From NCBI GenBank assembly GCA_050015495.1, contig JBEKBH010000001.1, positions 28,284-92,283 on the forward strand: DNA of 64,000 nucleotides, in the 5' to 3' direction. The stretch's first letter is position 1. Each line of letters begins with the position of its first letter. Below the pieces are notes generated by a model. It ran no database searches. It was not told the origin of the DNA and worked only from the letters and a program-made list of their open reading frames with translations. Both the position numbers and the translations under genes were made by a program. This DNA is from Verrucomicrobiia bacterium (lineage in GTDB: Bacteria > Verrucomicrobiota > Verrucomicrobiia > Palsa-1439). Shown here piece after piece: positions 4,801-54,624 of the stretch.

Positions 4801-5493
4801 GCCGAAGCGGCGGGTAATTCGATTAAACTCTTTACCGCCGGAAGTTGTCATTCTGAGCGAAGCGAAGAATCTCAGTCGTCCGGGAAAACGACAGAGACCC
4901 TTCGACAAGCTCAGGGTGACAGATCGGAGAAAGCGGTGTCACTCCATACCTTCCATTTCCACCGTCAGCGGAAGCCGGATGGGCTTTGCCTGTCCGATTA
5001 CGTCATGCCTCCGGCTCGTTCCCCTCGCCCCTCGGGGGGAGAGGGTCAGGGTGAGGGGGTGCTCGTCCGTGATTCGACTGCCCTCTTCGTCGTTGGCGCG
5101 GGCGCCGGCATCCGCCACCGCGCCGAGGAATACAAAGCCAAAGGCGAATACCTCAAATCGCACGCCCTGCAAGCGCTCGCCATCGAGACCGCCGAAGGCT
5201 GCGCCGAATGGCTCCATCGCCGAATCCGTGAGGACTGGGGGTTCCCCGATCCCGCCGACACGACCATGATCGACCGTTTCCAGGCCCGCTACCAGGGCAA
5301 ACGCTACAGCTTCGGCTACCCCGCCTGCCCCGCCCTCGAGGATCAGGCCGGGATTTGGAAATTATTGAGGCCGGAGGACATTGGTGTTCAACTCACGGAA
5401 GGGTTTATGATGGACCCAGAGGCGTCGGTGAGTGCGCTGGTGTTTCACCATCCCGATTGCACGTATTTTGGTGTGGGAGATGTGACGGAATGA
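1849..5493 (+). CDS. metH: Cobalamin-dependent methionine synthase MetH (Hcy-binding, pterin-binding, B12-binding and AdoMet activation domains)
   Basis: A 1214-aa ORF carries the expected MetH domain order. The N-terminus reads LDGAMGTMIQ, with GLNCATGP and GGCCGTTP in the Hcy-binding domain. The B12-binding region includes VKGDVHDIGKNLV, and the C-terminus has GYPACPALEDQ in the activation domain. Two short in-frame repeat-derived insertions sit in the activation domain (see the repeat features). Confidence 0.95.
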   Translation: MGNRDERTKLLTALLDERILVLDGAMGTMIQQRNLSADDFGGPALEGCNENLVLTRPDVILDIHRQYFEAGADIVETDTFGGTPLVLNEYGLADKCFALNATAAKLARQAAAEFSTPAKPRFVAASIGPTTKAITVTGGVTFAQLIDHFYQQVRGLAEGGADILLVETCQDTRNIKAALIGIQQAFDELGYKLPIMVSGTIEPMGTMLAGQAADALVASLQHVDLLSIGLNCATGPEFMTDHIRTIHQMANTRVSCYPNAGLPNEEGLYLETPTSLASALERFVKNGWLNIVGGCCGTTPPHIKAIAQMVDGKPPRTFRAARKSWYTGIELVEATDDNRPLIVGERTNEVGSRAFKRLITDEKFEEATEIARAQVKSGAHIIDINLENTDRDELADIDRFYEKVIHKVKVPFMIDTTNARAIERALTYCLGKSIINSINFEDGEEKFHKVLPLVKKFGAAIVIGSIDEDKLQAQAITRERKLAVARRARDYCVERGIAEEDLIFDALVFPCATGDENYIGSAVETIEGVRLIKQALPKCKTVLGVSNVSFGLPPAAREVINSVFLYHATKAGLDLAIVNAEKLERYATIPDKEKKLVEHLLWNLPFAGFDAPDDYRQQTREQRIAINQHHIAAINEHFRTAESRVKKKTSDLPLNGRLANYILEGSKEGLIDDLNLKLKEAAPLDIINGPLMDGMKEVGRLFNANELIVAEVLQSAEAMKAAVAHLEQFMEKKADSTKGKVLLATVKGDVHDIGKNLVEIILSNNGFNVINLGIKVPPEDLIKAYREHKPDAIGLSGLLVKSAQQMVITAGDLKQAGITVPLLVGGAALSDKFTRTRISPSYERVVVYCKDAMTGLSIMNRLMDPAERDKLAVEHAPSGGPRSVVAAVDEFPETTQRSSRVRILPPRPAPYADRKVRDVPQLREIWEYINPQMLYVRHLGFKSNFEKALAARDPKALELASLVDDVKAEAAKFMKVKAVWQFFDAEAAGNSIKLFTAGSCHSERSEESQSSGKTTETLRQAQGDRSEKAVSLHTFHFHRQRKPDGLCLSDYVMPPARSPRPSGGEGQGEGVLVRDSTALFVVGAGAGIRHRAEEYKAKGEYLKSHALQALAIETAEGCAEWLHRRIREDWGFPDPADTTMIDRFQARYQGKRYSFGYPACPALEDQAGIWKLLRPEDIGVQLTEGFMMDPEASVSALVFHHPDCTYFGVGDVTE
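4845..4940. repeat. Miniature inverted-repeat element (core GTCATTCTGAGCGAAGCGAAGAATC) inserted in-frame in metH
   Basis: Imperfect terminal inverted repeats are gtcattctgagcgaagc (left) and gacaagctcagggtgac (right). The three-frame translations give the recognisable CHSERSEESQ / VILSEAKNL peptides. In the MetH frame the element encodes SCHSERSEESQSSGKTTETLRQAQGDRSEKAV, an extra ~30 aa relative to the canonical MetH activation-domain loop. Confidence 0.55.
5022..5059. repeat. GC-rich miniature repeat (CTCGCCCCTCGGGGGGAGAGGGTCAGGGTGAGGGG family) inserted in-frame in metH
   Basis: It is the same family as the intergenic copy at 16743-16779 (ctcgccccttcagggagaggattaaggtgagggg). In metH it encodes RSPRPSGGEGQGEG, inserted between conserved blocks LCLSDYVMPPA and VLVRDSTALF. 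Confidence 0.6.
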
Positions 5494-6875
5494 ATGATTT
5501 GCCGACTGAACTTGTTCCGAGATTTCGGACTGATAGGCCGAATGAAACCGTCAAGGTCATAGCCGACCGGATGTCGTTGATCCGCGATGACGAGGTGCTC
5601 CTCTCGGGGGATGGGGAGATCGAAATGTGCTGGCTGCCTAGCCCGGGCGTACGTTTTTCCATAAAGAGGAAGTCGGAATATCCGCATGAATTCTTCAAAT
5701 ATTTGGGCGATCCCATTCCGCAGGGGTGCAAGATCGTTCTTGAGTCTTCTGGCAAGAGGTTACCCGTTTTTGTCACCAGCCATAGCTTTCCCGAGGGATT
5801 CAGGATGTATCACGGACGTGTCCAAGACGATGCGATTCCAAGCACCTTTGAGATTAAGGAAGCGACGTTCCATTTGGCGAACTTTAAAGCCGTTTTGTGT
5901 GAGGCAGTTGCATATCAGCAAGGGGGTGGCTCGCGGCTGGGTCGCTTCCGATTGGAGGCAGACGGATGGACGATTATTGTGGATGACATCCAAAACGGCG
6001 GACGGCACGGCGATTTGGAGAAGCAGCTGGATGCACAGGGCGGTTACGCGATTACGCACGTAGGGCGAATTGCACGAGCAGACGGCGGGGCTTTTACGGG
6101 TGACCAATGTACTGTTCTGCACGACAGGCTGTTTTGGTTCTTCTCGTTCTGTCGTTGCTGCAAAACAGGTCCCATCCTTGTGGGGCTAACCGGGAAGAAC
6201 GAGAACGAGAACCGGCTATCGCTGGTGGAGCGTTCGGTCAGCAGCTGGCAGTATCGCTCGAGCTGGGTGCCGGAAACCGAATTTCAAGTTCTCCCGTTGC
6301 TGTTTCCGGGTTTCCTCAAACGGATAAATGAACCCTCTTGGTCGGACACGATAGCATACGCGATTCATTGGTATTTGGAAGTGCACGATCAGTCGGGAGC
6401 TATCCAAGGGGCAATTGTGTTCGGTCAGACGGCCCTCGAAATGTTAGGCTGGAGTCTACTGGTTGATGACCTTCGAAATATAAGTCGTGAAGGCTACGAT
6501 AAGTTACCGGCAAGTGATAAGATTCGCCTGCTCTTGACCACAGTCGGTGTACCTCGGGAAATCCCGCTGTCTTTCACGAGGCTCTTGCAGGCGGCAAAAG
6601 CGGAGAACTGGCAAGACGGTCCGGACGCTGTTTCAGGGATTCGCAATCGAATAGTCCATTCAAGCGCGGATAAGCGTAAGGCTCTAAGCAGGGTAGAGTT
6701 CTCGGCCATCTGTGAGGCTTGGGAGCTCTGTCTTTGGTACAACGAGCTTACGCTTTTGCGTCTGTTCGATTATTCCGGCCAGTATTTCGACAGGACACGG
6801 AGCGCGAAATACCGATCGGAGGGACACGCGCCCGTGCCTTGGGCCGCAAACGGTCAGGTGGGCAAGCCCTTATGA
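5490..6875 (+). CDS. Hypothetical 461-aa protein with a C-terminal RN-x3-H (HEPN-like) motif, ApeA-like architecture; candidate abortive-infection/toxin gene
   Basis: The ATG at 5490 overlaps the metH TGA (ATGA overlap). The gene has visibly lower GC than its flanks. The C-terminal region has GIRNRIVHSSADKRKAL, which fits the HEPN R-x4-6-H signature. The N-terminal ~300 aa have no motif I recognise. The ApeA N-terminal-domain plus HEPN architecture is named from memory. Confidence 0.6.
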   Translation: MNDLPTELVPRFRTDRPNETVKVIADRMSLIRDDEVLLSGDGEIEMCWLPSPGVRFSIKRKSEYPHEFFKYLGDPIPQGCKIVLESSGKRLPVFVTSHSFPEGFRMYHGRVQDDAIPSTFEIKEATFHLANFKAVLCEAVAYQQGGGSRLGRFRLEADGWTIIVDDIQNGGRHGDLEKQLDAQGGYAITHVGRIARADGGAFTGDQCTVLHDRLFWFFSFCRCCKTGPILVGLTGKNENENRLSLVERSVSSWQYRSSWVPETEFQVLPLLFPGFLKRINEPSWSDTIAYAIHWYLEVHDQSGAIQGAIVFGQTALEMLGWSLLVDDLRNISREGYDKLPASDKIRLLLTTVGVPREIPLSFTRLLQAAKAENWQDGPDAVSGIRNRIVHSSADKRKALSRVEFSAICEAWELCLWYNELTLLRLFDYSGQYFDRTRSAKYRSEGHAPVPWAANGQVGKPL

Positions 6876-13100: not shown

Positions 13101-14049
13101 CTGGAAGGCGCTGGAACGACTGCGTGCCGCATTCCTGGACGGTACCGCGGGTGCTCGTGACTATTGGCGCAACGACCGCGATCTGGAGAGCTACGATCAG
13201 ACATTCGGCCAACGCATTCGCTGGAAATGGGACTATGTCCTGAAGGAGCTTGCGCGGCGCGGCTGGCGGCCGGCTCCGGGAGACGTGGTTGACTGGGGAT
13301 GCGGAAGCGGGATTGCCACGCGAGCATTCCTCGAACATTTCGGAGCGAAACTCCCATCGAAGCTGATTCTCTGGGACCGTTCCCCTGTGGCGATGCAGTT
13401 CGCCGCCCGCAAGGCGCGAGAAGCATTTCCCGATGTCCGCGTTTGGCTGGATCGCCCCGCCGACAGTGATTTCGGCACGCTCTTGATCAGCCACGTCCTC
13501 ACGGAGTTGTCGGAGGAGCAGACTGCGGAACTGCTCGCTCTGGGCGCGCGCGCGACGAGTGTGATCTGGGTCGAACCTGGCGCCTACGACGTCAGCCGAC
13601 GGTTGATTGCCGCGCGCGAGCGTTTACGCGCCACGTTTCAAATCGTCGCTCCCTGCACCCATCAAGCCCCTTGCGGAATGCTCACGCCCGAAAACGACCG
13701 GCATTGGTGCCATCAATTCGCACCGTCGCCGCCAGAGGTTTTCACCAACGGCAACTGGGCACGTTTTGCAAAACTGGCAGGTGTCGACCTGCGCAGTTTG
13801 CCCGTCAGCTTTCTTGTTCTCGACAAGCGACCGCCGCCGGCCCAATCCGATCCCATCCGCGTCGTTGGCCGTCCGCGCGTGTACAAGGCCCACGCCTTGG
13901 TACTCGGTTGCGACGAAGACGGGATCAAGGAATATCGGTACACCAAGCGCGACCAACCGGAAGAATTTCGCCGCCTGAAGAAAGGTGGTGTTCCATCATA
14001 CCTGCCGCGGCGCGACGACAGTCAGCCGGCCGCAAACCTTCCCCGCTAA
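13081..14049 (+). CDS. Rsm22-like SAM-dependent methyltransferase (rRNA/ribosomal methyltransferase family)
   Basis: The motif VVDWGCGSGIAT is the SAM-binding motif I. The C-terminal QIVAPCTHQAPCGML Cys-His cluster is typical of bacterial Rsm22-like proteins. The start at the MDWQTIDWKAL ATG overlaps the upstream methyltransferase by about 20 nt, and an alternative ATG lies at 13066. Confidence 0.6.
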   Translation: MDWQTIDWKALERLRAAFLDGTAGARDYWRNDRDLESYDQTFGQRIRWKWDYVLKELARRGWRPAPGDVVDWGCGSGIATRAFLEHFGAKLPSKLILWDRSPVAMQFAARKAREAFPDVRVWLDRPADSDFGTLLISHVLTELSEEQTAELLALGARATSVIWVEPGAYDVSRRLIAARERLRATFQIVAPCTHQAPCGMLTPENDRHWCHQFAPSPPEVFTNGNWARFAKLAGVDLRSLPVSFLVLDKRPPPAQSDPIRVVGRPRVYKAHALVLGCDEDGIKEYRYTKRDQPEEFRRLKKGGVPSYLPRRDDSQPAANLPR

Positions 14050-14056
14050 AAAAGAA

Positions 14057-14082
14057 CCCCCGGCAACTCGCGTTGCCAGGGG
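14057..14082. terminator. Bidirectional rho-independent terminator hairpin between convergent genes
   Basis: The stem cccccggcaac / gttgccagggg has 10 bp with one mismatch and a 4-nt loop. It is flanked by an A-tract on the left (aaaaaag) and a T-rich stretch on the right (tctgtattgtctgg). It lies between the methyltransferase gene (+) and the csp gene (-). Confidence 0.55.
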
Positions 14083-14105
14083 TCTGTATTGTCTGGAATC
14101 CTGCT

Positions 14106-14306
14106 TTATTTCGCCACGACGTTGGACGCCTTCGGTCCCTTGGGGGAATCAACCAGCTCAAACTCCACTGTTTGACCTTCCTCCAAGTTCTTGAAGCCGT
14201 TGCCAGAAATGCTCGTGTAATGCACGAACACATCGGGGCCACCCTCCTGTTGAATAAATCCAAAACCCTTTTTCGTATCGAACCACTTCACTTTTCCAGA
14301 TGCCAT
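14106..14306 (-). CDS. Cold-shock protein (CspA family, 66 aa)
   Basis: The protein reads [63 protein letters not shown]. The ATG at rc 14304-14306 is preceded by a GGAG ribosome-binding site. The longer 80-aa track ORF is an upstream extension. Confidence 0.9.
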
Positions 14307-14802
14307 AGCTTCTCCATCCACCTTTCTTCGTTTAGTCCTGTATGGCAAAACGCCGTTCCAAAACCTTCGGAACGGCGGTGCACTTCCAAAGACTTCGCGC
14401 GCAGTATAAAAGATGCCTTGCCCATGTCAACGCTGTAGTTGAAGCGCGCCCAACCATCTCCCAAATCAGCCCACAATCCGCGTATTCCCCTCACTCCACA
14501 GCAGTTACACCATCGGACGATTCAGGAGGTCGCGCCATTTCAGCACATCCATTTCGCCCCCTGCCAGTTGTGGGTTTTTTCACAAAAAAGCGTCGTTTTC
14601 CACTGACAATGGCTCGCCAATGCCGTCGAGCTTCAGGTGCCAACTCACTGTAAAAAAACGCATTTGCGCCTTCCAAAATTGGCCGTTCGCGTCCTCCCAA
14701 ACACAAAATCGTTCCCCCAAGCTCCCCGATCAGCGGGTTTTGCACTCCGGCACCCCCGACTCGATCCCTTGGCATCTCAGTTGCTCTTCCATCCTCATAC
14801 AT

Positions 14803-15225: not shown

Positions 15226-16494
15226 TCACACCAGCCACGACGGTATCGTCTCGCCCGAAACCAGGTCCTTGACCGACTCCCGACGCCGCACCAGTTCGCA
15301 CCGGCTCCCGTTCACCATCACTTCCGCCGGACGCGGCCGCGCATTGTAGTTCGACGCCATCGCCATCCCGTACGCGCCCGCGCTCATCACGGCCAGCAGC
15401 GCATCCTCCTCCACCGCCGCCACACGCCGCCCTTGGGCCAGAAAATCGCCCGACTCGCAAACCGGCCCGACGACGTCCGCCGTGATTTTCCGGCGCGCCG
15501 ACCTCTCGGCCACAGGAATGATCTCGTGATGGCTCCCGTACAGCGACGGACGAATCAGGTCGTTCATCGCCGCGTCGACAATCACAAACCGTTTCACGGG
15601 CGTCTGTTTGATGTGTACGACCCGCGTGACCAGCACGCCGCCGTTGCCGACAATGAAACGTCCCGGCTCCAATAAAATCCTCAGCCCCAGCTTCTTCACG
15701 TGCGGCGTGACCGCGCGGGCAAATTCCACCGCCGTCGGCGGACGTTCCTTTCGATACCGAATGCCGAGCCCGCCTCCCATGTCGAAGGATTGCAGCGTCC
15801 GGGGCGCAATCTCGCGCACCTGCTCGATCAATGGCGTGATTTTGCGAATCGCCAGCACGAACGGCGCGGTCTTGGTGATTTGCGAGCCGATGTGCATCTG
15901 GACGCCGCGGATTTCGATGCCGTCCAACCGCGCCGCCTGACGGTACACATCCAGGGCGTTCCGGAGCGAAATCCCGAACTTGCTTTCGTGTTTGCCCGTC
16001 GAGATGTAGTGGTGCGTGTCCGGGTCAACTCCCGGGTTCACGCGAATTGCAATCGGCGCCCGCCGGCCCATGCGTCGGGCCACCCCGGCAATCCGCCGCA
16101 ACTCCGGCTCGCTTTCCACGTTGAACATGTAGATCCCCAGTTTCAACGCGTACTCGATCTCGTCCCGCGTTTTGCCCACGCCCGAGAACACGCATTTCCT
16201 CGGATCGCCACCCGCCTGCACCACCCGATACAATTCGCCGCCGCTGACGATGTCAAAACCCGTTCCCGACCGCGCCAGCGCGCGGAGCACTGCCAGGTTG
16301 CTGTTGGCCTTGACCGCAAAACAAATCAGGTGATCGAGCGACCCCAGGGCCTTGTGCAGATCGTCGCACTGGCCCGTGATATGTCCCTGGCTGTACACGT
16401 ACAACGGCGTGCCGAATTCCCGGGCGAGACGCCGCAGCGGCACACCCTCGCAATACAACTCGCCCTTCCGGTATCGGAACGCGTTCATTGGCAT
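15226..16494 (-). CDS. lysA: Diaminopimelate decarboxylase LysA
   Basis: The 422-aa protein has the PLP site FAVKANSN. The blocks GFDIVSGGEL, HIGSQI, GGGLGIRY, EPGRFIVGN and CESGDFL match the Orn/DAP decarboxylase family. Confidence 0.95.
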   Translation of the reverse strand: MPMNAFRYRKGELYCEGVPLRRLAREFGTPLYVYSQGHITGQCDDLHKALGSLDHLICFAVKANSNLAVLRALARSGTGFDIVSGGELYRVVQAGGDPRKCVFSGVGKTRDEIEYALKLGIYMFNVESEPELRRIAGVARRMGRRAPIAIRVNPGVDPDTHHYISTGKHESKFGISLRNALDVYRQAARLDGIEIRGVQMHIGSQITKTAPFVLAIRKITPLIEQVREIAPRTLQSFDMGGGLGIRYRKERPPTAVEFARAVTPHVKKLGLRILLEPGRFIVGNGGVLVTRVVHIKQTPVKRFVIVDAAMNDLIRPSLYGSHHEIIPVAERSARRKITADVVGPVCESGDFLAQGRRVAAVEEDALLAVMSAGAYGMAMASNYNARPRPAEVMVNGSRCELVRRRESVKDLVSGETIPSWLV

Positions 16495-16620
16495 AGTGAG
16501 TTTACCAACAAGCCTTTACACCCGCAACCCTCCGCTCCGCCCCGAAGACTCTCGGGGTTGTAGCGTCCGCTGTCCCCAGCGGAATTCCCTCTTTCTCTTG
16601 CTCCTGCCCTTCCTCCCCCC

Positions 16621-16701
16621 AACTTGGCTTCGTTTTTGGCTTTGTTTCAGTAACTTTTCCACGCCGGCTTGCATAAACTTGGGTTCGTTTTGCGAAAAAC
16701 C
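16621..16701. repeat. Two tandem copies of a TTGG(C/G)TTCGTTTT-core intergenic motif; the same core recurs at 47447-47570
   Basis: The first copy is aacttggcttcgtttttggc at 16621-16640. The second is aacttgggttcgttttgcgaaaaacc at 16676-16701. The second copy is nearly identical to agcttgggttcgtttcgcaaaaacccc at 47544-47570. Confidence 0.5.
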
Positions 16702-16742
16702 ATTTTTTTGGAGGGCGAGCCTCATCCCCAGCCCCCCGCGTC

Positions 16743-16779
16743 TCCTCGCCCCTTCAGGGAGAGGATTAAGGTGAGGGGT
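16743..16779. repeat. GC-rich miniature repeat (same family as the in-frame metH copy at 5022-5059)
   Basis: The sequence ctcgccccttcagggagaggattaaggtgagggg can be compared with ctcgcccctcggggggagagggtcagggtgagggg in metH. It is intergenic, upstream of lysA. Confidence 0.6.
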
Positions 16780-17047
16780 ACTCCCGTGTCCTACGCCGCC
16801 TACCCCCATCAGCCACTTGTCCGCCTCCGGCGGATTCTCCATTAACCATTTTCTCATCGCCTATATCAAAAACCAATCCGACCCCGTAATAATATCGTAC
16901 ATCAATACCAGAGTCAAATCTAATAATCGACAGCCCACGCCGCGCTACAGCGACGCAAACCCACGTCCTTGTAACGCTGCTGATTGCGCTATCGCTGGTC
17001 TTCCTGGCGCTTGCACGGATGGCCTTGATGATGCCGGCGCGTTAGTC

Positions 17048-17908
17048 TCACGACAGAACGTCATCGGGCGAAACTTCAAGAATATCTCTGCAAAACTCTG
17101 ACATTATATTTCTACAGCGAACCATCGCTGGCTTCTCAACCGTTCCTTCGTTTGCCCACTTCGGAAATCCAAATCCAGCCTTCCACGAGGCGTTAAGAGG
17201 TAGAATCTGTCCAAATTCATCTCCCTCTTGCATGAAAACCCCTCGATAATGAATGAACTTGTAGAACATTCGCTTGTCAAATTGCCGCGTCAACGTCAGG
17301 ACGATAGTAAACGCGGGAATAATTTTTCCAGTGCCTAGGGTCTTTAGGTAAGGCGCTTCCATCGAGCCGCTTCCCGCATGAATCAAAAGTCCATTACAAT
17401 CTTCAAATGGCTTTATGAGCACACTCTCTTTTGGTAGGAATTGTGCTTTTAGCCTACGGTCCAATGTGGCACCCCCCGCTTCGTTTAGTGTGCTTTTTTC
17501 TCGGTCAAATACCGAGCATACAACCGCGAGAAGGCGCAACTCCTCAAACTTTTGTCGAGACGTGTTCGTGACCATGATTGTGCTTTTAAACGAACCTTCG
17601 CCGTGGTCGATAACTACCGAAATGGTGGGCTTGCTGGCATTCTGTATTTGTTCTTGGGTTTGTCTTATCTGCTCACGTTGCAACCACAGGGCGCAAACGA
17701 CACCAGCAAACGCTAGACCGGCAAATAGAGAATTCACTGCACCGAACATGTCTCCGAATTGTCCACGGTCAGAATAGGGTGAATTCGGATTTGGGGGAAC
17801 GAAATGCAAAATCAACAACCACGCTGACCCCCATAGTGCAATCACTACTGCGAAAACTAAAAACACCCACCAGTACCGCTTTGCAAATTCCAGTGCCTTC
17901 TTCATCAC
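17048..17908 (-). CDS. Island gene D: hypothetical 2-TM membrane protein with ~200-aa C-terminal soluble domain (candidate membrane-disrupting effector)
   Basis: The 286-aa protein has TM helices near residues 12-33 (WWVFLVFAVVIALWGSAWLLILHF) and 55-76 (FGAVNSLFAGLAFAGVVCALWL). The gene sits in a low-GC segment, 19 nt downstream of gene C. It has no motif I recognise. Confidence 0.6.
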   Translation of the reverse strand: MMKKALEFAKRYWWVFLVFAVVIALWGSAWLLILHFVPPNPNSPYSDRGQFGDMFGAVNSLFAGLAFAGVVCALWLQREQIRQTQEQIQNASKPTISVVIDHGEGSFKSTIMVTNTSRQKFEELRLLAVVCSVFDREKSTLNEAGGATLDRRLKAQFLPKESVLIKPFEDCNGLLIHAGSGSMEAPYLKTLGTGKIIPAFTIVLTLTRQFDKRMFYKFIHYRGVFMQEGDEFGQILPLNASWKAGFGFPKWANEGTVEKPAMVRCRNIMSEFCRDILEVSPDDVLS

Positions 17909-17927
17909 TTGCTCCTAACGGCTCACT

Positions 17928-18389
17928 TCAATGTGCAACAGCCTGAGCCAACTTCGTTACAAACTGTTTGAGGCAATCCTGTGGTACGAGAACGCTGAAC
18001 CCATCGTCGCCATAGAATTCGATTTTGGTAATCTCCGAGCCGTCACCATGTGGTCGGATGTCCAAGTGGGAAATGCTGTTCCTCATGCGATAGATGAGTT
18101 CGCATAGTGTTCCGTAATGTTCAGGTTTGACCTTCTCCGGGCGCTTTCCCCAATTCTTCACGAATTCAAGGTGAAATCCCCAATCTCCGAGTTGTTCGAT
18201 TGGGATAGGTGGTAGACGGTTAAATCGCCGCTCATTCGGCAGCACCAACAAACCGAGCAGGCAGTTAATCAGGAGCGTCACTTCAACTTGCTCTCGCTTT
18301 TCCACCGCGCTTTGTACGTGCGTCTCGTACTGCTGAATAATAGCGAGCGTTCTGGTGATGAAGTCTCTCTCAAACACTTCGTATTCCAT
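17928..18389 (-). CDS. Island gene C: small (153 aa) HEPN-motif protein
   Basis: The sequence LIYRMRNSISHLDIRP contains R-N-x3-H, which fits the HEPN Rx4-6H catalytic motif. The gene lies in the low-GC segment, and its size is typical of a minimal HEPN domain. Confidence 0.5.
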   Translation of the reverse strand: MEYEVFERDFITRTLAIIQQYETHVQSAVEKREQVEVTLLINCLLGLLVLPNERRFNRLPPIPIEQLGDWGFHLEFVKNWGKRPEKVKPEHYGTLCELIYRMRNSISHLDIRPHGDGSEITKIEFYGDDGFSVLVPQDCLKQFVTKLAQAVAH

Positions 18390-18410
18390 AAATGCAGTCT
18401 CGCAGCTTCA

Positions 18411-19151
18411 TCAGGCAACAGGTGTAGACTCCCTCCATCTCTCTTCAAACAATTTCAACTGAGCGGCAGGATTCGCAATCCGGTTCAACTGCGTGTCCTT
18501 TGTGCCAAGGTCTTTCATCGAGTGACCAACGTGGAACCCATGAGACTTGTCCCACAACACAAAACGGTCATGAATTTGTTGAAAGCCATGCAGGCGCATC
18601 TCGACTTTGCCGTATTCGGCTTTGAATGCACCGTATGCGATGATTGCTGCACTTTTTGTTTGGTCGGAAGTGATAATCCGTACAGATGCCCCGGTTTCCG
18701 CGTCCTGAATCAAATCGAACACCTTTGCGCCGATGTAAGGGTCAAGGATGCAGAGTTCGGCCTTTGCGAGACTGAAAATTTCTCGTAGAATGCGATTGGC
18801 CTTGAAGTGTTCTCCTGCCCTTACGAGAATTTCATCTTTTTGAATATTGGACACACGGATGATGGGCTGACTTTCCCATTCCTGTTGAGCGTGGCTCATT
18901 GATGCGTAAAGCTCCGCTCCATAATCCGTCAATCTGACCATATGCCCGTCTGGTGAAAGACTCAGAACATTTTTATCAATAAGAGATTGGAGTATCTGGT
19001 CTCCGGTTTCGCAATGCAATCTGGCGAGTGCTATTTGAACTTGTACAAGCTCGTGCGGCATCGTCCACGACATGAACTTCATAAAGTAGACACCGACGAC
19101 CCAAAATTCTTTTTTGGAGAGTTCTGCCATAGGCTTTAGACAGTCTCCCAT
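18411..19151 (-). CDS. Island gene B: hypothetical 246-aa protein, N-terminal winged-helix-like region plus C-terminal acidic/His-rich domain of unassigned fold
   Basis: The N-terminal stretch ILQSLIDKNVLSLSPDGHMVRLTDYGAELY resembles a wHTH recognition helix and wing. The C-terminal half has the conserved-looking blocks CILDPYIGAKVFDLIQD, VRIITSD, IHDRFVLWD and GFHVGHSMKDLG. These give only weak PLD- or PIN-like resemblance. Its start overlaps gene A by 16 nt. Confidence 0.5.
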   Translation of the reverse strand: MGDCLKPMAELSKKEFWVVGVYFMKFMSWTMPHELVQVQIALARLHCETGDQILQSLIDKNVLSLSPDGHMVRLTDYGAELYASMSHAQQEWESQPIIRVSNIQKDEILVRAGEHFKANRILREIFSLAKAELCILDPYIGAKVFDLIQDAETGASVRIITSDQTKSAAIIAYGAFKAEYGKVEMRLHGFQQIHDRFVLWDKSHGFHVGHSMKDLGTKDTQLNRIANPAAQLKLFEERWRESTPVA

Positions 19152-19798
19152 CCTGCATCAACGGAGCGCAACTGTCCCCAATGGAACTTGCGCGGAACTG
19201 TGTCGAGAATTGTTGCGATGTAAACAAAAAGATTCTGTTTCGCGATGTCGTCACACCCAACCACATCACAGGCGAAACGTAACGCGGCCCTAAGATTTGT
19301 TTCAGGAGCCTGCAAGTGTCGTTGATTTCCCTTCTTCGCACCCGCCAATATCGCGCAAATGAGCTTAGGTTCTTCGGGTGCTGTCTTGTCGAGAAGTTTA
19401 AGACAAACCTGAGCAAATTCCATTTTGTTTGGCATCCATGGCCCCTTCCATTCGACCCGTATGCGTGGGCAGGTGTGGATAACAAAATCGTGGTTCCCTC
19501 TCTGGCCCCGTAGCACTTCTTGCCTCTCCTTCTGAACATTCTCAAGCCTCAGAGCTTTCCAACTGAATTTGCCAGCAGTTTTTCCTTCCGGTGTCAACAG
19601 GTGCTCCGTCCACATGTCAACCCCATCTTCTTTGAAATGCTTCCAAAGCAGGCACGAAAATTTGTGGTGAAAAAATCGTTCGTTCGCTAAATCCTTAAAC
19701 GAGTCATACCCAACAGTATTCCGATGCGCAGCCGTCACTGCCAGAATCTGCTCAAGGATTGCTTCCCAATCCGATCGATTCAGTTCGTATTGCACCAA
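19136..19798 (-). CDS. Island gene A: hypothetical ~220-aa protein with possible PD-(D/E)xK nuclease motif
   Basis: The likely start is TTG/GTG at rc 19795-19798, 8-9 nt after AGGAG, and the protein begins VQYELNRSDWEAIL. The longer track ORF extends upstream into the tandem-repeat region. The stretch WTEHLL...GNHDFVIHTCPRIRVEWKG gives E...D...ExK spacing compatible with a restriction-endonuclease-like fold. This is speculative. Confidence 0.45.
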   Translation of the reverse strand: MVQYELNRSDWEAILEQILAVTAAHRNTVGYDSFKDLANERFFHHKFSCLLWKHFKEDGVDMWTEHLLTPEGKTAGKFSWKALRLENVQKERQEVLRGQRGNHDFVIHTCPRIRVEWKGPWMPNKMEFAQVCLKLLDKTAPEEPKLICAILAGAKKGNQRHLQAPETNLRAALRFACDVVGCDDIAKQNLFVYIATILDTVPRKFHWGQLRSVDAGWETV

Positions 19799-19891
19799 GC
19801 AGCTTCTCCTTCTGCGCGTACGGATAGGGGTCAGACCTATGATCTTGACACCATCCCCTCCCGCCTCCGCCCGAAGTGCCGTCACCCCCCA

Positions 19892-19970
19892 CTTCGAATT
19901 TCGACATTCGGACTTCGAGTTCTGCCCGCACCCGTGCGCTTCGAATTTCGACATTCCGATTTCGAGTTTC
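19892..19970. repeat. Tandem direct repeat (2 x ~31-nt unit, period ~47 nt) at the right boundary of the low-GC island
   Basis: The first unit is cttcgaatttcgacattcggacttcgagttc at 19892-19922. The second is cttcgaatttcgacattccgatttcgagtttc at 19939-19970. Confidence 0.6.
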
Positions 19971-20056
19971 GCGCCCTTATTCGCCTGCCCTGAGCCTGTC
20001 GAAGGGTGTTGAACATCCGCGCCGATCTGTGCGTGAATCTGTGGCTCCGCCCTCTT

Positions 20057-20093
20057 GAACGTTGAGCGTTTAGCGTTGGACGTTGAGCGTTAA
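20057..20093. repeat. Tandem hexa/heptamer repeat (A/G)CGTTG(A/G) x5-6
   Basis: The sequence is gaACGTTGAGCGTTTAGCGTTGGACGTTGAGCGTTaa. A related three-unit copy, cttagcgttgagcgttgagggcgtttg, lies at 41744-41770 and overlaps the 5' end of the YfhO-like gene. Confidence 0.55.
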
Positions 20094-20113
20094 TCTGTCT
20101 CCCGTTCCCGCCC

Positions 20114-20920
20114 CTACAGCCACCCTGCAATCCGGTCGGCAATGCCCTTCTCGCAGACCGGGCCCAACACCTTGCGGACACGCTCCTTGGCCTGGTCGCG
20201 CGGATACTCGACGTTGTACTTCTCGACCTGCCACTCCTTGCCCTCGAGCTCGTCGAGGATCAGGTATTCCGGATGCCGCTTCGGATTCGTCGGGAAACCG
20301 ACCGACCCCGTGCCGATCCACCCAAGATCGTCCTTTCGCAATCGGACCGGGTGCGGGTCGCGCCCTTCCCCCTCGTGCGCCGTCATCGGCACGAGCATGA
20401 CCGGTTTCTCTTCCTGGGATATCTCCGCCCGCAGCGTGTGTGTGTGGCCGTAGAAACACACCCGCCCGTTGTTGTGCCGCAAACAGGCCAGTTCGCCCTT
20501 GGCGTTCCGCGCGGAGCGGTGATACCCGCCGCTGCTCGGCGCCACCAACGAGTCGTGCGTCAACCAGATCGTCTCATTCACGCACGTCGTCAGGCACGGC
20601 GCGTCGATGAACTCTTTTGCCCACGGGTTGACCTCCATTTGCTCCCACGTCCACGCCAGCGTTTGAACCGCTTCGGGACTGTACCCGGTCTCTTCCACGT
20701 CCCCGCGTAGCGCCAGTTCGTGGTTTCCCGCCACCCAGGCCAGATTGCCGTTGTCCGCCCAGGGTTTCAACCGCGCCATGCACTCCAACGGGTCCGGGCC
20801 GTACCCGACAATATCCCCAACGAACAAATACGCCTCCACGCCGCGGGCCTGCCCGGCCGCCAGCACGGCCTCGAGCGCCAACAGGTTCGCGTGTACGTCT
20901 CCAAATACCAGGAATCTCAT
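20114..20920 (-). CDS. Calcineurin-like metallophosphoesterase
   Basis: The protein begins MRFLVFGDVHANLLALEAVL. The motifs GDIVGYGPDP, GNHE and GHTH match the metallophosphatase motifs GDxHG / GDxxDRG / GNHE / GH. Confidence 0.8.
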   Translation of the reverse strand: MRFLVFGDVHANLLALEAVLAAGQARGVEAYLFVGDIVGYGPDPLECMARLKPWADNGNLAWVAGNHELALRGDVEETGYSPEAVQTLAWTWEQMEVNPWAKEFIDAPCLTTCVNETIWLTHDSLVAPSSGGYHRSARNAKGELACLRHNNGRVCFYGHTHTLRAEISQEEKPVMLVPMTAHEGEGRDPHPVRLRKDDLGWIGTGSVGFPTNPKRHPEYLILDELEGKEWQVEKYNVEYPRDQAKERVRKVLGPVCEKGIADRIAGWL

Positions 20921-22083: not shown

Positions 22084-23424
22084 TCATTCCGCCTTCTTCG
22101 TGATTCGAATGTTGTCACCAACGACCCACCGATAGTTCGCATCCTGATCCAACGGTTTCAGCGCGTAGGAAATCCCCGGTTCCATTTTGCCGTATTCTCC
22201 GGCGGGAATGCGGATGTAACATTCCGAGTTCCAGAAACCCCGCTCGGCCTGAGCCTGAATGTCGCCATGACCATCGGCGGACAAGACAAACTTCTTGCCG
22301 AGGTGTGGATAGATCTCTTTCAAGTCATCGAACGAGACGTTTACATGAACGAGCAGATGGCCGTCGCCTTGAGACTGAGCAGCGTCCCAATGTTCAGGAA
22401 TCGACTGAGGGCGGTCACTGGAAAAGAACCAATAGGCTTTGGTGATCGTGACGTTCTTTTTATCAGTAGCGGTTGGGTTAGAAATCTGGCCGCTGAGCTT
22501 GTCAAAGAGCATCTGTTGCCTCAGCCAGACCCGATGTGTAATGCGTTGACTGGTTCCGGAAGGATACGCGCTCCACGGAACAAGGTTGAATGCATTGCAG
22601 GTGTCGCTGCCGATCGAGCCGTTGTATTCGTATCCGTCCAGCTTCTTGATCTGGTCCTTTAGCTTGGCGAAATCAGACCCGCTGCTGACGACGCCAACGA
22701 GGAATGGATATTCCGAGTCGTCAATCACGTCTTTCTTGAGGGTGATTCCGGCGTTCCGGGCCGCGAGTTGGATGGCATTGATCAGACCTTCCTTGGTGTA
22801 TTTGGCATCCATGTTCGCCGGCGGTTCAACGGGGTTTCCCAAATATTCGAGGAGGGCTTGATTGGGGCCGGACGCCGATGCTGGCTCCTCCGAGGAACCG
22901 CCGGTGCCGTTCTGATCAAGGTAGCTCCATCCTTTATTGCGGAGAACCCTGTTCCCTTGGCCGAAATACACTCCACCGAAATCGCTGCGATTGAAATCAC
23001 TACCTCCGTGGCCCGGGTAGAAGCTGACGTGAAGGTAGCCGTCCTCGGTCATGGTCTGAACCAGGCGGAACGAACCGGTGCCTTTCTTGATCCAGATGCG
23101 TTGTTCCGGGCCAATGGGGGTAGGATTCGGCGAGATGGTGGTCGTATAAAAGGACAGACGAGCTTCATCCTTGGAACTCAGGGTGTAGGTGCCCTCCACG
23201 CAATATGTCCCCCCGGTCGTGATCGTATCACTCGTCCCGCGCACTTGTTGGATCGTGATATTGTCACCGGGGGCAAATTCCGCATCGCCCAGTTCAAACG
23301 GCACCGCATAGGGAAAGCTCTCCAAGGTCCCATCAGTTGCCGCTGTGCCTGCCACCGCGCAGGACATGCTGATGGTAAACAGAGCCGCAAAGGCCCGGGG
23401 CAGGCGTGCACGGTGTGTTTTCAT
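22084..23424 (-). CDS. Hypothetical secreted protein (446 aa), last gene of ECF sigma / anti-sigma operon
   Basis: The start MKTHRARLPRAFAALFTISMSCAVAG is a signal peptide. The start codon overlaps the anti-sigma stop by 4 nt. It has no motif I recognise. Confidence 0.6.
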   Translation of the reverse strand: MKTHRARLPRAFAALFTISMSCAVAGTAATDGTLESFPYAVPFELGDAEFAPGDNITIQQVRGTSDTITTGGTYCVEGTYTLSSKDEARLSFYTTTISPNPTPIGPEQRIWIKKGTGSFRLVQTMTEDGYLHVSFYPGHGGSDFNRSDFGGVYFGQGNRVLRNKGWSYLDQNGTGGSSEEPASASGPNQALLEYLGNPVEPPANMDAKYTKEGLINAIQLAARNAGITLKKDVIDDSEYPFLVGVVSSGSDFAKLKDQIKKLDGYEYNGSIGSDTCNAFNLVPWSAYPSGTSQRITHRVWLRQQMLFDKLSGQISNPTATDKKNVTITKAYWFFSSDRPQSIPEHWDAAQSQGDGHLLVHVNVSFDDLKEIYPHLGKKFVLSADGHGDIQAQAERGFWNSECYIRIPAGEYGKMEPGISYALKPLDQDANYRWVVGDNIRITKKAE

Positions 23425-23999
23425 AGTGGTATCCTCTTTTCTTGTGTCGGCTGGACAGGTGTTTGGCCCCCGGTCCAAAGCGTCTCATTGGCGACCACGG
23501 TCTCGCATGACAGCGTGTCCACCACCAGATTGCCTTCCCGGCGGAACTTGTAGATTGGCGCACAATACGAAATCTGGATGGAAATTGCGGAAGATATATC
23601 ACGGCCATCGGATCGGGCAATTTCCGTTCGATGGGTTCGTACGCCGGGAAAATGGTTGACCAGTAGGAAGCCAACGACTAGCAACAGGCAAACCGCACCA
23701 GCCAGAGGCCACGCAAAACGGTTCCATAAACCAACCAAAGGCTCCCGATCCATGAGCGGGACGGACTTGTGCTCGAGAACCGTCAGGATGCGCCGTCGGA
23801 CATCCGGCCGTAGCGCAAGGGTTTTAGTCCCTTGACGAAGACGCTCGGACAGGGATTGCGCCAGTTGTTGCTCCTGCCGCACGGCTTGCCGACAGATGCC
23901 GCACCGGGCAAGATGCTGGTCCGCCGCAGCCCGCGTCCCGGGGGAAAGCGTTCCCTCCGCATATTCGTACAATCGATTCTGAAAACGTCGGCAGTTCAT
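23421..23999 (-). CDS. Zinc-finger anti-sigma factor (zf-HC2/ChrR-like) with one TM helix
   Basis: The motif HLARCGICRQ is an HxxxCxxC zinc motif. A TM helix is WPLAGAVCLLLVVGFLLV. The gene overlaps the upstream ECF sigma gene by 4 nt. Confidence 0.65.
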   Translation of the reverse strand: MNCRRFQNRLYEYAEGTLSPGTRAAADQHLARCGICRQAVRQEQQLAQSLSERLRQGTKTLALRPDVRRRILTVLEHKSVPLMDREPLVGLWNRFAWPLAGAVCLLLVVGFLLVNHFPGVRTHRTEIARSDGRDISSAISIQISYCAPIYKFRREGNLVVDTLSCETVVANETLWTGGQTPVQPTQEKRIPL

Positions 24000-26032: not shown

Positions 26033-26797
26033 TCAGTTGTTACCGCGCGGCGGCATCATGCGCTGCATGCTGCCCATCATCATCTCTTGGATGCTGCCGT
26101 ACTTGGTGAAATCGCCCGGCGGATCGAATAGCGCCGCGTCCGGGGCCGACAGCTTGACGTTGCTGAAGTGCGTCGTTATCGTCGCGCCATTGGCCTGCAT
26201 TTCGGTCTTGATCGGGAAATTGTTGAGATCGGTCGCCTGCCACGTGAGCATCTCGTGTTGCGTGCCGTCATCCGCCGTGAACGTGATCTTGTTCTCGATG
26301 CTCGGATGACCGTCCACGATGTCCTTGCCAATCTGGGTGACATCGATCTTGGGTTCCTTTGGTGCCGGTTTGTCGGTCGGCGGAGCCTGCGACGAGCTGA
26401 TTTCCGTGTACGATTTCAACCCCGGATACACGAGGTACATGACCTTCTTGTCGCCACGATAAATGTTCACGGCCCGGTCCATGCCCATCTGTTTCATCTG
26501 GGCGACGGCTTGCGGAGGCATTTGCCTGCCTTTCATGCTCGTCATATCGATCTCAGTGCGCAGGTTGCCCTTGAGGAACGCGTAGGAAGTGTCCATCTCC
26601 ATGGGCGGGCCGTGCTGCGCATCCACAATCGAGATGTTCGCGGTCGCTGTGAACGCCTGGTTGTGGCCGAATATCTTCGCCATGTCCGCGCTGCCGATAT
26701 TCCCCGGCCCGGCGCCGACCATCCGTTGCGCAAACCCCGTCGGGATTGTTAGACACGCTATCACCGCCATCATTGAGTAGACACGCCATGCCTTCAT
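26033..26797 (-). CDS. Hypothetical secreted protein (254 aa, Met/Gln-rich)
   Basis: The start is MKAWRVYSMMAVIACLTIPTGFAQ, with the ATG at rc 26795-26797 after a GGAAG sequence. The longer 493-aa track ORF is an upstream extension. Confidence 0.5.
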   Translation of the reverse strand: MKAWRVYSMMAVIACLTIPTGFAQRMVGAGPGNIGSADMAKIFGHNQAFTATANISIVDAQHGPPMEMDTSYAFLKGNLRTEIDMTSMKGRQMPPQAVAQMKQMGMDRAVNIYRGDKKVMYLVYPGLKSYTEISSSQAPPTDKPAPKEPKIDVTQIGKDIVDGHPSIENKITFTADDGTQHEMLTWQATDLNNFPIKTEMQANGATITTHFSNVKLSAPDAALFDPPGDFTKYGSIQEMMMGSMQRMMPPRGNN

Positions 26798-39343: not shown

Positions 39344-41773
39344 CTACCGATTGCGGACTGCCAATCCCAACCCCGCAAGGAACGCCACGATGCTGACCAC
39401 GGCCGCCACCGCGTACGCTCGCGGCGGTTGATACCGCAGGAGAATCGCGTGGGCGCCCGCTGGCACTTGCACGCCCATGAGACCGCAACTCACCCGCACA
39501 ACCTCGGCGGGTTGGCCGTCGATTTCCGCGCGCCAGAACGGATAGTAGCTCTCGGCGATGACCGCCACGCACGCCGACGGCGCCGTCAACTGGATGCGCA
39601 CCAATTGCGCGTTCTCTCGCGTGAGTCGCACATCTCCCAACGATACGGGCGTGCCGGCATCGACCGGTGGAACCGGTGAGCTGTCCTCGCCATATACGCG
39701 CTCATACTTCTGCGCTTCGTCGGCGGGGACTTCACCCGGGCTTGCCTGTTTGGCTTGCACCAGCGGCCAGTTTCTTGCCGAGAGAACCAGCGCGAGGACC
39801 GGCGACTTGTGAACGTCACCGGCGTAGAGACAGGCGCGCGCGTACGCCGTCACGTACGGCCGGGCGGTATCGTTGCGGAACACCGCGAAATCTTCATTCG
39901 TCAAGACAGCGGCATAGTTATGCGACAGATCATCGAGGATCGTCTGCGGCTCGGGAGCGCCGGGGCTGGCCATGTCGAAGACGACATAGCGTGCCCCCAT
40001 CAAGTCGAGGAAGGCCCGATTCATGATGATGCGGCGGTCCGGCAACTGGATGAGGGCCTCCTGGTTCAGCAGGCCCGTGCCCAGCGGACACATCCAGTTG
40101 TAAAAGGCTTCATAGACCTGTGGTTTGCCGCCCCACATCGGCCCGAGCAGGTGAAAGTAGCGCCCGGAAAGCGCGTAGGTCTTGACCCAATCCGGGTCCT
40201 TCTCGAGCGATTGATACGCCGACTGCAGGTTCGCCAACGTGTGAGCGGGGACGCCGTTGTCCCATGTCGGTTTTTGATACGGCCAGTAGTCGAACAACAT
40301 CAACAGGCCGAGACCCGCCACAATCTTCGGCGCGTGCGCCCGCCATTTCTCCGCCTGGAGCACATCCGTGACGAAGAATCCCGCCAGCACCGCCCCCAGA
40401 AATACTGCGGGTGTATCGTAAAAGGCGTATGGCGCCCGGATATCCTTGAAATACGGGAGCGTGGCCAACAATTGGAAACCCGGCACAAACAGGAAAATCG
40501 CCAGCGCCACGCCGGCAATCACCCGCTTACGTCCCGTGGTCAATTTTCGCCGATAGAACACCACCAAAAATGCGAGGCTCACCAACACCCACGCGAGGGC
40601 AACCCCGGACACTTGGTGCGACGAAAGCGCCGTCCAGGTCGTCCAGTTGGCCGACCACACGCTGCTCGGTCCCGTCGCCAGCATTACGCTCACCAATAAC
40701 GCCCCCACGAAAAACCAAAATGCCCGTCGCTCCGCCCGGCGCGTATTCCACAGCGCGGTGGCCCCAAGAATCACCAGCAATACGATCCCCATGTATTTCT
40801 CGGGAGAGTCCGAGCCCAGTGACATCAACCGTTGCACCTGGTCCAATTCCGCCTGGCTGTTCACGCGCCCGCCGTTGGCCTGGATCCGCGAGATCACAAC
40901 GCCGACAAGGTTGCTCGTGGCCGAGCCGTTGCGATCGACCAAACCCAGCAGACTCTTGAACGAGAAGCCTTTCTGCCAGGCCGCCAATGGATCGCCGTAA
41001 AACAGCTTCACGTACCGCGATTCCACAAAGCCGGGCGCCAGCACCCACGTGCCCATCGCCAGCCCCATGGCCGCCAGGAATCCGCACGTGCGGGCGGTCA
41101 GTCGCCATTGCTGGCGTCGGGGCCACAGCCAGTAGAGCGCGTAGCCAAACAGAAACAGAAACACGGTGAACGCCTGCTTGTTGTCCGTCCACCAGGCCAG
41201 CACGGCGACGAGGGCGCATAGAAACGTATCCCGAACGGTGTTGGTTTCGAGGGCTCGGGCCATCGTCAGCCAGAGGAGCGGCATGAAGGGAAAGAACAGG
41301 ATGATGGTCATGTGTTCCGCGCCCGCCGCCCGGATGATCTGTTCCGGATGCAGCAAGAACGCCACCGCGGCCAACGCCGCTCCCCAGTCATGCTTCAAGA
41401 AATGCCAAGCGCAAAAGTACATGGCCACCGCCCCCGTAAAGATCGCCAACAACGCCATGAGCTTGCCGGCGGTGATGAGGTCGGTGAACATCGAAAAGAA
41501 CATCCACGGCAGCAGATAAAAACCTCTGACATGGTTGAGGCCGTAGCTCGATCCGCTCATGAAATACGGCGTCCACCACGGAAGCGCATGATGTTGCGAG
41601 ATTTCGCGCTGGATGTCCCAAACGCGTGAAGCCGAGCCGCTCAACTCGTTTGCACTCAACCCCAACGGCAGCCAGTGCGCACCGAGCCAGACGCAGTACC
41701 CCGCCGCCACCGCGATTGTCAACCACAGCCCGGGGCCGGGCCGCTTAGCGTTGAGCGTTGAGGGCGTTTGCAT
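39344..41773 (-). CDS. Large (809 aa) polytopic membrane protein, YfhO/GT-C-like
   Basis: The ATG at rc 41771-41773 gives MQTPSTLNAKRPG. More than 12 hydrophobic helices are followed by a ~250-aa C-terminal soluble domain. The architecture resembles YfhO/ArnT-type glycosyltransferases. The longer 834-aa track ORF is an upstream extension. Confidence 0.5.
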   Translation of the reverse strand: MQTPSTLNAKRPGPGLWLTIAVAAGYCVWLGAHWLPLGLSANELSGSASRVWDIQREISQHHALPWWTPYFMSGSSYGLNHVRGFYLLPWMFFSMFTDLITAGKLMALLAIFTGAVAMYFCAWHFLKHDWGAALAAVAFLLHPEQIIRAAGAEHMTIILFFPFMPLLWLTMARALETNTVRDTFLCALVAVLAWWTDNKQAFTVFLFLFGYALYWLWPRRQQWRLTARTCGFLAAMGLAMGTWVLAPGFVESRYVKLFYGDPLAAWQKGFSFKSLLGLVDRNGSATSNLVGVVISRIQANGGRVNSQAELDQVQRLMSLGSDSPEKYMGIVLLVILGATALWNTRRAERRAFWFFVGALLVSVMLATGPSSVWSANWTTWTALSSHQVSGVALAWVLVSLAFLVVFYRRKLTTGRKRVIAGVALAIFLFVPGFQLLATLPYFKDIRAPYAFYDTPAVFLGAVLAGFFVTDVLQAEKWRAHAPKIVAGLGLLMLFDYWPYQKPTWDNGVPAHTLANLQSAYQSLEKDPDWVKTYALSGRYFHLLGPMWGGKPQVYEAFYNWMCPLGTGLLNQEALIQLPDRRIIMNRAFLDLMGARYVVFDMASPGAPEPQTILDDLSHNYAAVLTNEDFAVFRNDTARPYVTAYARACLYAGDVHKSPVLALVLSARNWPLVQAKQASPGEVPADEAQKYERVYGEDSSPVPPVDAGTPVSLGDVRLTRENAQLVRIQLTAPSACVAVIAESYYPFWRAEIDGQPAEVVRVSCGLMGVQVPAGAHAILLRYQPPRAYAVAAVVSIVAFLAGLGLAVRNR

Positions 41774-47446: not shown

Positions 47447-47570
47447 CCAAACCGAACCCAAACGAACCCAACGCAAAAATCATTTTTCAAAAGTTCTAAC
47501 TACCCGTCCCACAACCTCATTCACACGCACTTTTGATCCAAAAAGCTTGGGTTCGTTTCGCAAAAACCCC
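47447..47570. repeat. Inverted plus direct copies of the TTGGGTTCGTTT-core motif also found at 16621-16701
   Basis: The inverted copy at 47447-47479 is ccaaaccgaacccaaacgaacccaacgcaaaaa. The direct copy at 47544-47570 is agcttgggttcgtttcgcaaaaacccc. It lies in the 600-nt leader upstream of the giant surface-protein gene. Confidence 0.45.
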
Positions 47571-54573: not shown

Positions 54574-54624
54574 CCGGTGCCAATCCGCACATGATAACTG
54601 GAGGCGATCGCGGTAGAGTTTCCC

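Follow-up and report, generated by a model that had tools for sequence, protein, structure and literature searches.

A low-GC islet between lysA and a phosphoesterase gene in a Verrucomicrobiia genome: probably four autonomous single-gene conflict modules rather than one defence system

The closest described relatives of the proteins studied here belong to separate families. Members of the pEK499_p136 family of HEPN proteins have been found in restriction-modification (R-M), ART/Macro, NamA and Pgl operons, and RhuM-like proteins have likewise been described in R-M and Pgl neighbourhoods, whereby RhuM itself was proposed in the same 2013 HEPN survey to act by protein modification (Anantharaman et al., 2013; PMC3710099). 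A representative of PDC-S05, which is described with a RhuM domain, reduced the plating of phages T7 and T5 about 1000-fold in Escherichia coli and likewise protected E. coli against T4 (bioRxiv 10.1101/2024.09.26.614923). Lactococcal AbiC is a two-transmembrane (TM) abortive infection (Abi) protein of unknown mechanism (PMC13064643). Here, we report on a low-GC segment in which relatives of these families, together with a putative nuclease, follow each other closely as genes A, B, C and D on the minus strand. The segment is located between lysA and a metallophosphoesterase gene in a stretch of 64,000 nucleotides (nt), in the following called the window, which covers positions 28,284 to 92,283 of contig JBEKBH010000001.1 from a Verrucomicrobiia metagenome-assembled genome (GCA_050015495.1). 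Identical NCBI proteins are deposited under the locus tags ABSA12_00230 and ABSA12_00235, on a contig of 240,633 nt. An earlier note on this DNA had regarded the four genes as a candidate for one undescribed defence or abortive-infection cassette.

In order to find out whether the four genes belong together, a co-conservation check was carried out with the contexts of nine homologs of A, B and D, seven genome loci for C, two putAbiC relatives of D and the plasmid matches. These comprise roughly 18 independent loci, namely four for A, four for B, seven for C, and for D one with a full-length and two with partial homologs. When A-D were compared by tblastn with all fetched loci, no pair of the four families was found together in any of the independent loci, each family being solo in every one of them, and the proposed cassette was thus not borne out. 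One locus on a JGI contig (L015), where B, C and D do occur together, appeared to be a second instance but was rejected, since it is the same DNA at 99.97% identity. The solo homologs are mostly lower in GC content than their own flanks, as would be expected for individually mobile genes. Because each family occurs alone in other genomes, we consider the array a patchwork and not a new four-part system. In our view, it is probably an islet that was acquired by horizontal transfer and whose four genes are autonomous, single-gene modules of conflict within one probable transcription unit. The main value of this result is a negative one: a tidy low-GC four-gene operon appears to be composed of single genes that are mobile independently of each other, and for this reason the block should not be catalogued as a system. 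The opposing explanation would be one integrated, undescribed system, in which the nuclease, a protein with a winged helix-turn-helix (wHTH) and a phospholipase D (PLD)-like domain, the HEPN RNase and the two-TM effector act jointly, B being, for instance, the sensor or regulator and A, C and D the executors. It is true that the genes share one strand, a spacing of 5-21 nt, a uniformly low GC content and a single upstream non-coding region, and that their mix of DNA-, RNA- and membrane-directed proteins resembles the "multilevel" R-M/RhuM/HEPN defence neighbourhoods (PMC3710099). However, the islet is like these neighbourhoods in theme only, without conserved linkage. Not even two of the families meet elsewhere, they are often found as a low-GC islet of their own, and the catalogued systems related to B (PDC-S05) and D (AbiC) consist of a single gene, which makes an integrated system very improbable. 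A multilayer unit that was assembled within this lineage, in which the winged helix of B would control the array via the upstream direct repeats and all four proteins would be cooperating effectors, is very improbable as well.

The islet stands out clearly from its surroundings. The block 17048-19798 has a GC content of 48.0%, compared to 60.2 +/- 1.7% (minimum 55.5%) for all other 2750-nt windows, which corresponds to z = -7.3. In 500-nt bins, positions 17001 to 19500 show 47-49% GC versus about 60% elsewhere in the window, and the GC content at third codon positions is 48-57% in genes A-D versus 74-83% in lysA, the phosphoesterase gene and ROK. The compositional difference that had been noticed in sampled sequence is therefore confirmed window-wide. 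On its left side, the islet is bordered by the conserved lysA-type diaminopimelate/ornithine decarboxylase gene (15226..16494, minus strand; PF02784 and PF00278) and on its right side by the conserved metallophosphoesterase gene (20114..20920, minus strand; PF00149). When metagenome contigs were scanned with the phosphoesterase protein, 53 loci were obtained, in which the synteny ROK-phosphoesterase-lysA is conserved and lysA, 66-91% identical in the relatives, is always located downstream of the phosphoesterase gene. In seven distant relatives (L039-41, L043, L045, L048, L051), 20-100 nt separate the phosphoesterase stop from the start of lysA, which represents the empty site. In the closest relatives (L023, L036, L026, L027, L030), nucleotide homology to the window ends at 20106-20114 and restarts at 16488-16530. 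The first break coincides exactly with the stop of the phosphoesterase gene, and the second is found about 35 nt upstream of the lysA gene. These breaks define a strain-specific variable segment of ~3.6 kb (16531..20105), which consists of the islet and its repeat-rich flanks. Given the deviant composition, the absence from relatives and the empty site, the segment is foreign DNA, which was probably acquired horizontally.

In close relatives, whose phosphoesterase is 77-87% identical, this junction is occupied by different and unrelated cargo, with inserts of 1.3, 3.0, 4.3 and >7 kb. These include a 1.3-kb insert with an Lcl_C gene (L030:7805-9101), 3.0 kb with unknown genes (L023:7805-10810), 4.3 kb with a DUF4932 gene and a low-GC MauJ-like gene (L027:7805-12142), and more than 7 kb with a kinase fragment, an ankyrin protein, DUF5655 and an IS1595 transposase (L036:7805-14804). 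In L026 and L028, TPR proteins are encoded from position 7805 onwards. No PADLOC match was found among this cargo. Thus, the insertion hotspot suggested earlier is a variable site indeed, but nothing supports that it is dedicated to defence, and the lysA/phosphoesterase junction is a genuine but general variable hotspot. As such, it can be used to mine strain-specific cargo in this Verrucomicrobiia clade. Signatures of mobility are lacking at the islet itself: the open reading frame (ORF) list and a Pfam scan revealed no integrase, transposase, relaxase or replication gene in or adjoining it, no tRNA, tmRNA or Rfam element was found at its borders, and no att-like or long flanking direct repeat was found. 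It might be that the genes have nothing to do with defence and that the islet is a decaying fragment of a plasmid or an integrative and conjugative element, whose genes serve addiction, DNA processing or exclusion or are no longer functional. Relatives of RhuM/ORF6N and pEK499_p136 proteins are common on plasmids, the hotspot of the relatives holds non-defence cargo and the IS1595 transposase, and a defence link for A or D lacks an experimental basis. Against such a fragment speaks that all four ORFs are intact and have kept their family-invariant catalytic residues, that the mobility and replication genes named above are absent, and that the contexts of the families elsewhere are mostly chromosomal R-M/toxin-antitoxin (TA) islands. 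Overall, we consider this explanation unlikely. A phage origin was also considered and rejected, as relatives of A, B and C are absent from IMG/VR viral contigs and the TM module of D gives only a weak PHROG match.

Within the islet, the ORFs were first called at 17048-17908 (D), 17928-18389 (C), 18411-19151 (B) and 19136-19954 (A, 272 amino acids [aa]), all on the minus strand. The gene order and the gaps of 19 nt (C-D) and 21 nt (B-C) described before are exact, but the 16-nt overlap of A and B turned into a 5-nt gap after correction of the start sites. For gene A, the start is most likely TTG 19798, 7 nt after a GGAG sequence, which results in a protein of 220 aa, or GTG 19795, the NCBI start (219 aa). 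The ATG start of the 272-aa ORF was rejected since the extension runs into the upstream repeats, and the additional 52 N-terminal codons (19799-19954, minus strand) look like an artefact. The start of gene B was set to ATG 19130, because the N-terminus MxELSxxEFW is conserved in the B family; the alternative ATG 19151 would yield 246 aa instead of 239 aa. From the spacing, it appears that A-D are probably co-transcribed as a single unit. The presumed promoter zone is the non-coding region upstream of the array (19799..20113), which contains 30-nt direct repeats and TTGAGCG heptamers. A consensus scan revealed no sigma-70-like site on its minus strand, and sigma-70 and terminator sites were no more frequent than in shuffled sequence; hence we only infer the operon boundaries and the promoter. 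An integron cassette array was ruled out, since the gaps are only 5, 21 and 19 nt long and no inverted repeats are present between the genes, as attC sites would require. According to the family and fold assignments, none of the four proteins belongs to a housekeeping family, which agrees with the earlier assessment, and no relatives of A, B, C or D were found at the sequence level among solved structures.

Gene A (19136..19798, minus strand) belongs to a rare orphan family of six clusters, and its structural model is predicted to have a BamHI-like PD-(D/E)xK restriction-endonuclease-like fold. Among known proteins, type II restriction endonucleases of the BamHI/OkrAI/BstYI/BglII type and the effector nuclease NucC appear to come closest to it. 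In the model, D104 is located at the start of the strand 105-107 and E116-W-K118 lies within the strand 113-118, so that the putative catalytic (P)D...(D/E)xK residues are placed on consecutive strands. Residues D104, E116 and K118 as well as E71 are invariant in all six family members. The E...D...EWK pattern on which the nuclease prediction had been based is thus present, and the predicted fold and the motif support A as a PD-(D/E)xK nuclease candidate, whereby a Foldseek cross-check of the model against the PDB gave no significant match. There is no methyltransferase domain in B, C, D or the flanking genes that would make A the partner in a type II R-M system, nor does a methyltransferase adjoin A homologs in their contexts in other genomes. 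In the four independent contexts, the A homologs stand alone, in R-M/TA islands or amid housekeeping genes, next to a secreted protein, HigB, cytochrome c or a coiled-coil lipoprotein, and no neighbour type is conserved. The 208-aa neighbour of the A homolog in L007 was taken into account as a C relative (E = 0.026) and rejected, since the hhalign probability was 0.1% and the sequence is coiled-coil lipoprotein-like.

Gene B (18411..19130, minus strand) encodes a protein whose family comprises 14 clusters. The winged-helix-like N-terminus that had been proposed for B was recognized as a MarR-like winged helix, and the motifs LDPY, HDRFVLWD and GHSMKDLG are all present. In the structural model, the C-terminal domain has a PLD fold. 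Its motif H187-D-R189-x4-D194-x7-G202-H-S204-x-K206 keeps the His and Asp of the PLD motif HxK(x)4D(x)6GSxN, whereas Lys is replaced by Arg and Asn by Lys. Pfam PLDc_2 matches B with 16.8 bits, which is below the gathering score of 27, and reaches E <= 0.01 in 6 of 13 family members (best 5e-7). The match to the PADLOC hidden Markov models of PDC-S05 is significant (E = 8e-24 and 5e-19) and extends to all 13 family members (best 3e-29). It is partial, since it covers positions 169-294 of 306 (about 41%) in one model and 141-278 of 285 in the other; the N-terminal half differs. In addition, Pfam Virulence_RhuM (PF13310) does not match B at E <= 1, and an ORF6N-type N-terminal domain is missing. 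By tblastn against plasmids, the C-terminal domain corresponds to the C-terminal half of proteins annotated as "RhuM family" and "ORF6N domain-containing" (26-32% identity), and the pattern H-D-R-x4-D...G-x-S-x-K-D-x-G is invariant among the B relatives, a Bacteroides RhuM protein, a Butyrivibrio ORF6N protein and a haloarchaeal plasmid protein. The plasmid-borne RhuM/ORF6N proteins that share the motif are located at L076:1994-2872, L077:1970-2962 and L078:2033-3037. Within the RhuM-C/PDC-S05 clan, B is thus a variant that is new with respect to its N-terminal domain, with an HKD motif in which Arg takes the place of Lys. Like PDC-S05/RhuM (ORF6N-RhuM) proteins, it combines a DNA-binding N-terminal domain with the common C-terminal domain and invariant motif and occurs solo, but it carries the MarR-like winged helix in place of the ORF6N/RhuM N-domain. 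It differs from PLD nucleases such as Nuc, NucT, Zucchini, BfiI, the SauUSI nuclease domain, DrmC and MkoC in the Arg for the motif Lys, in "G-H-S-x-K" instead of "G-S-x-N" and in a score below the PLDc_2 cut-off.

The modelled fold suggests a PLD-type phosphodiesterase/nuclease mechanism for the RhuM-C/PDC-S05 domain. Since the C-terminal halves of the plasmid RhuM/ORF6N proteins are homologous to the modelled domain of B, they may adopt a PLD fold as well, and for RhuM a PLD-type phosphodiesterase may be a better fit than the protein modification proposed in 2013. The predicted PLD fold with its HxR motif would thus provide a mechanism lead for a widespread uncharacterised clan. B homologs were found solo, as single genes, in all four contexts: in L001/2 between a FlgD_ig protein and a DUF885 gene, in L003/4 between nrdR and nrdD, in L005/6 within a small-ORF region, and in L013 beside an IS66 element. 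In L003 (6001-6765, and likewise in L004), the solo B homolog is followed by a 120-aa unknown gene, and both are located between nrdR and the anaerobic ribonucleotide reductase genes nrdD and nrdG, where one would not usually expect a nuclease-type gene that has been acquired.

Gene C (17928..18389, minus strand; 153 aa) encodes a stand-alone HEPN domain protein, for which Pfam PF18736 (pEK499_p136) was matched with 92.4 bits (cut-off 26.6; E = 3e-26), from residue 2 to 151 on model positions 3-145 of 152. The MRNSISH sequence, in which a HEPN signature had been seen, was corroborated by this match. The Rx4-6H motif reads R103-N-S-I-S-H108, and an alignment of 27 relatives showed both R103 and H108 to be invariant. 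An exhaustive search retrieved 363 representative clusters at E <= 1e-3, and enterobacterial plasmid homologs carry the annotation "HEPN family nuclease". C is an ordinary PF18736 member, with RNase activity predicted from its sequence. It matches the model of the pEK499_p136 HEPN family described by Anantharaman et al. (2013; PMC3710099) from end to end, including the invariant Rx4H, but instead of belonging to an R-M or Pgl operon, it is accompanied by three other genes of toxin type in a short array. A HEPN-MNT toxin-antitoxin pair was ruled out, since no NTP_transf_2/MNT match occurs among A, B and D. For the locus scan, 10 aligned sequences were used because the wider alignment is too diverse. 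The C relatives occupy seven unrelated genome contexts, with TPR, SDR, DnaJ/KTSC and AAA_14 proteins and unknowns as neighbours, and no recurrent partner type (TM protein, PLD protein or restriction endonuclease) was found next to them in the seven genome loci.

These neighbourhoods also bear on the possibility that the genes are coupled in part. There might be lineage-specific two-gene modules, either C and D as HEPN RNase plus membrane protein or A and B, with the wHTH of B repressing or targeting A. Alternatively, B might be a TrmB-like regulator of the array which acts via the upstream 30-nt repeats. For genes assembled by chance, the spacing of 5-21 nt is unusually tight, and it also fits functional coupling, and the wHTH-plus-PLD-like layout of B is shared by the non-catalytic TrmB/TrmBL2 regulators. 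However, partner types are not conserved next to C relatives, where no consistent TM protein occurs, and the neighbours of A relatives vary in type as well. Furthermore, the H-D-R...D...G-H-S-x-K set, which is invariant in the B family and common with RhuM proteins, points to an active site rather than to a domain with a purely regulatory role. Partial coupling is thus quite improbable.

Gene D (17048..17908, minus strand; 286 aa) encodes a protein with two N-terminal TM helices (hydrophobic segments 12-39 and 54-76) and a C-terminal domain of ~190 aa. The N-terminal module, DRGxFGDxFGxxNxLFxGLAFAGV, has 17 invariant columns and is shared with PF16872, DUF4760 and DUF6082. In total, 93 D homologs were retrieved (phmmer E down to 1e-13). 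Nearly all of them align over the N-terminal 20-50% only, and many carry PF16872 (putAbiC), PF15956 (DUF4760) or PF19560 (DUF6082). By tblastn, D also matches an annotated "putative phage abortive infection protein". The only full-length relative is P0022 (49% identity), and the C-terminal ~190 aa of D align with the P0022 cluster alone. The best Pfam match is DUF6082 with 23.3 bits at a cut-off of 26.7 (E = 5e-5), whereas PF16872 does not match D at E <= 1 and PADLOC gives no match. Thus, of the two-TM plus soluble domain layout suggested before, the two N-terminal TM segments hold, but the suggested kinship to SLATT does not, since no SLATT model is among the Pfam matches at E <= 1. Judged by sequence, D is related via its N-terminal module to AbiC-type (PF16872), DUF4760 and DUF6082 proteins and not to SLATT. 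Common to them are the two-helix module, the strongly conserved second helix and the Q/E/R-rich helix that follows. AbiC/putAbiC-type genes are also solo like D, sometimes near R-M genes, but the C-terminal ~190 aa of D are unrelated to the putAbiC domain. In L014, the full-length D homolog is located opposite a divergently oriented N6 methyltransferase, within an island that contains Mrr, and the two putAbiC relatives of D are solo as well.

Taken together, three rare unannotated families have been delimited, each with its catalytic or signature residues: a predicted solitary BamHI-like nuclease, a wHTH/RhuM-C variant with a putative PLD domain, and an AbiC-module protein with a new C-terminal domain. 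If the four genes are autonomous conflict modules, an islet that entered a variable junction flanked by two conserved housekeeping genes would encode a solitary PD-(D/E)xK DNA nuclease with BamHI-like fold (A), a DNA-binding winged helix fused to a PLD-type phosphodiesterase/nuclease domain (B), a stand-alone HEPN RNase (C) and a two-helix membrane protein of AbiC type that has a C-terminal domain of its own (D). Their likely function would be a layered anti-phage/anti-plasmid defence, in which each gene acts by itself and the targets would be invader or host DNA (A, B), RNA (C) and the membrane (D). The genes would probably be abortive-infection-type toxins that are restrained until infection. 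Several points weigh against autonomous defence modules. The sample of contexts is small and the families are rare (six clusters for A, 14 for B, two full-length for D), and the sole context of a full-length D homolog lacks the downstream side. The only experimental defence link is that of a PDC-S05 protein with a different N-terminal half than B, the catalytic-motif Lys of PLD enzymes is an Arg in B, and D stays under every Pfam threshold and has an uncharacterised C-terminal domain. To these are added the lack of PADLOC matches in the relatives' junction cargo, the TrmB-like layout of B and the tight gene spacing. The absence of A, B and C from viral contigs may be listed here too, but it speaks neither for nor against a defence role. 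A milder statement, that at least one of the A, B and D families is a new stand-alone anti-phage gene type, is a serious possibility, with the balance tilted somewhat against it.

The flanks of the islet contain repeats as described in the earlier note, but these are not specific to the islet and hence do not mark it. Upstream of the array, two 30-nt direct repeats are located 47 nt apart (19892-19921 and 19939-19968), and TTGAGCG heptamers are present at 20055-20091, with further heptamer runs at 41744-41766 (41.7 kb). The downstream non-coding flank (16495..17047) carries lineage-wide repeats, namely TTGG(G/C)TTCGTTT at 16624 and 16679 (span 16624-16690), which occurs again at 26349-26360 and 47450-47558, and a GC-rich element at 16758-16778, which recurs at 5038-5058 (5.0 kb). 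The interspersed motifs are likewise found in the relatives L027 and L036. Therefore, the repeats were rejected as islet termini or att sites, and the heptamer, 12-mer and GC-rich motifs are lineage-wide intergenic repeats and not islet ends. A 113-aa ORF (16516-16857, minus strand), which is annotated as a gene in L015, the JGI contig, reads through the repeats and looks like an artefact.

Several intergenic regions of the window contain short interspersed motifs of three kinds, namely TTGGGTTCGTTT, runs of the TTGAGCG heptamer and the GC-rich GGAGAGGATTAAGGTGAGGGG; these might be REP-like, regulatory or of another nature. Apart from the islet, there are further patches of lowered GC content (51-56%) at 5355-6875 (plus strand), 13671-14435 (plus strand) and 22084-23478 (minus strand), the ORFs of which (506, 255 and 464 aa) have no Pfam match and are possibly acquired or lineage-specific. 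The region 53152-55497 (52-57% GC) encodes a phospholipase A1 (PF02253) domain protein and, convergently, a MetA-pathway outer-membrane-type protein (PF13557).

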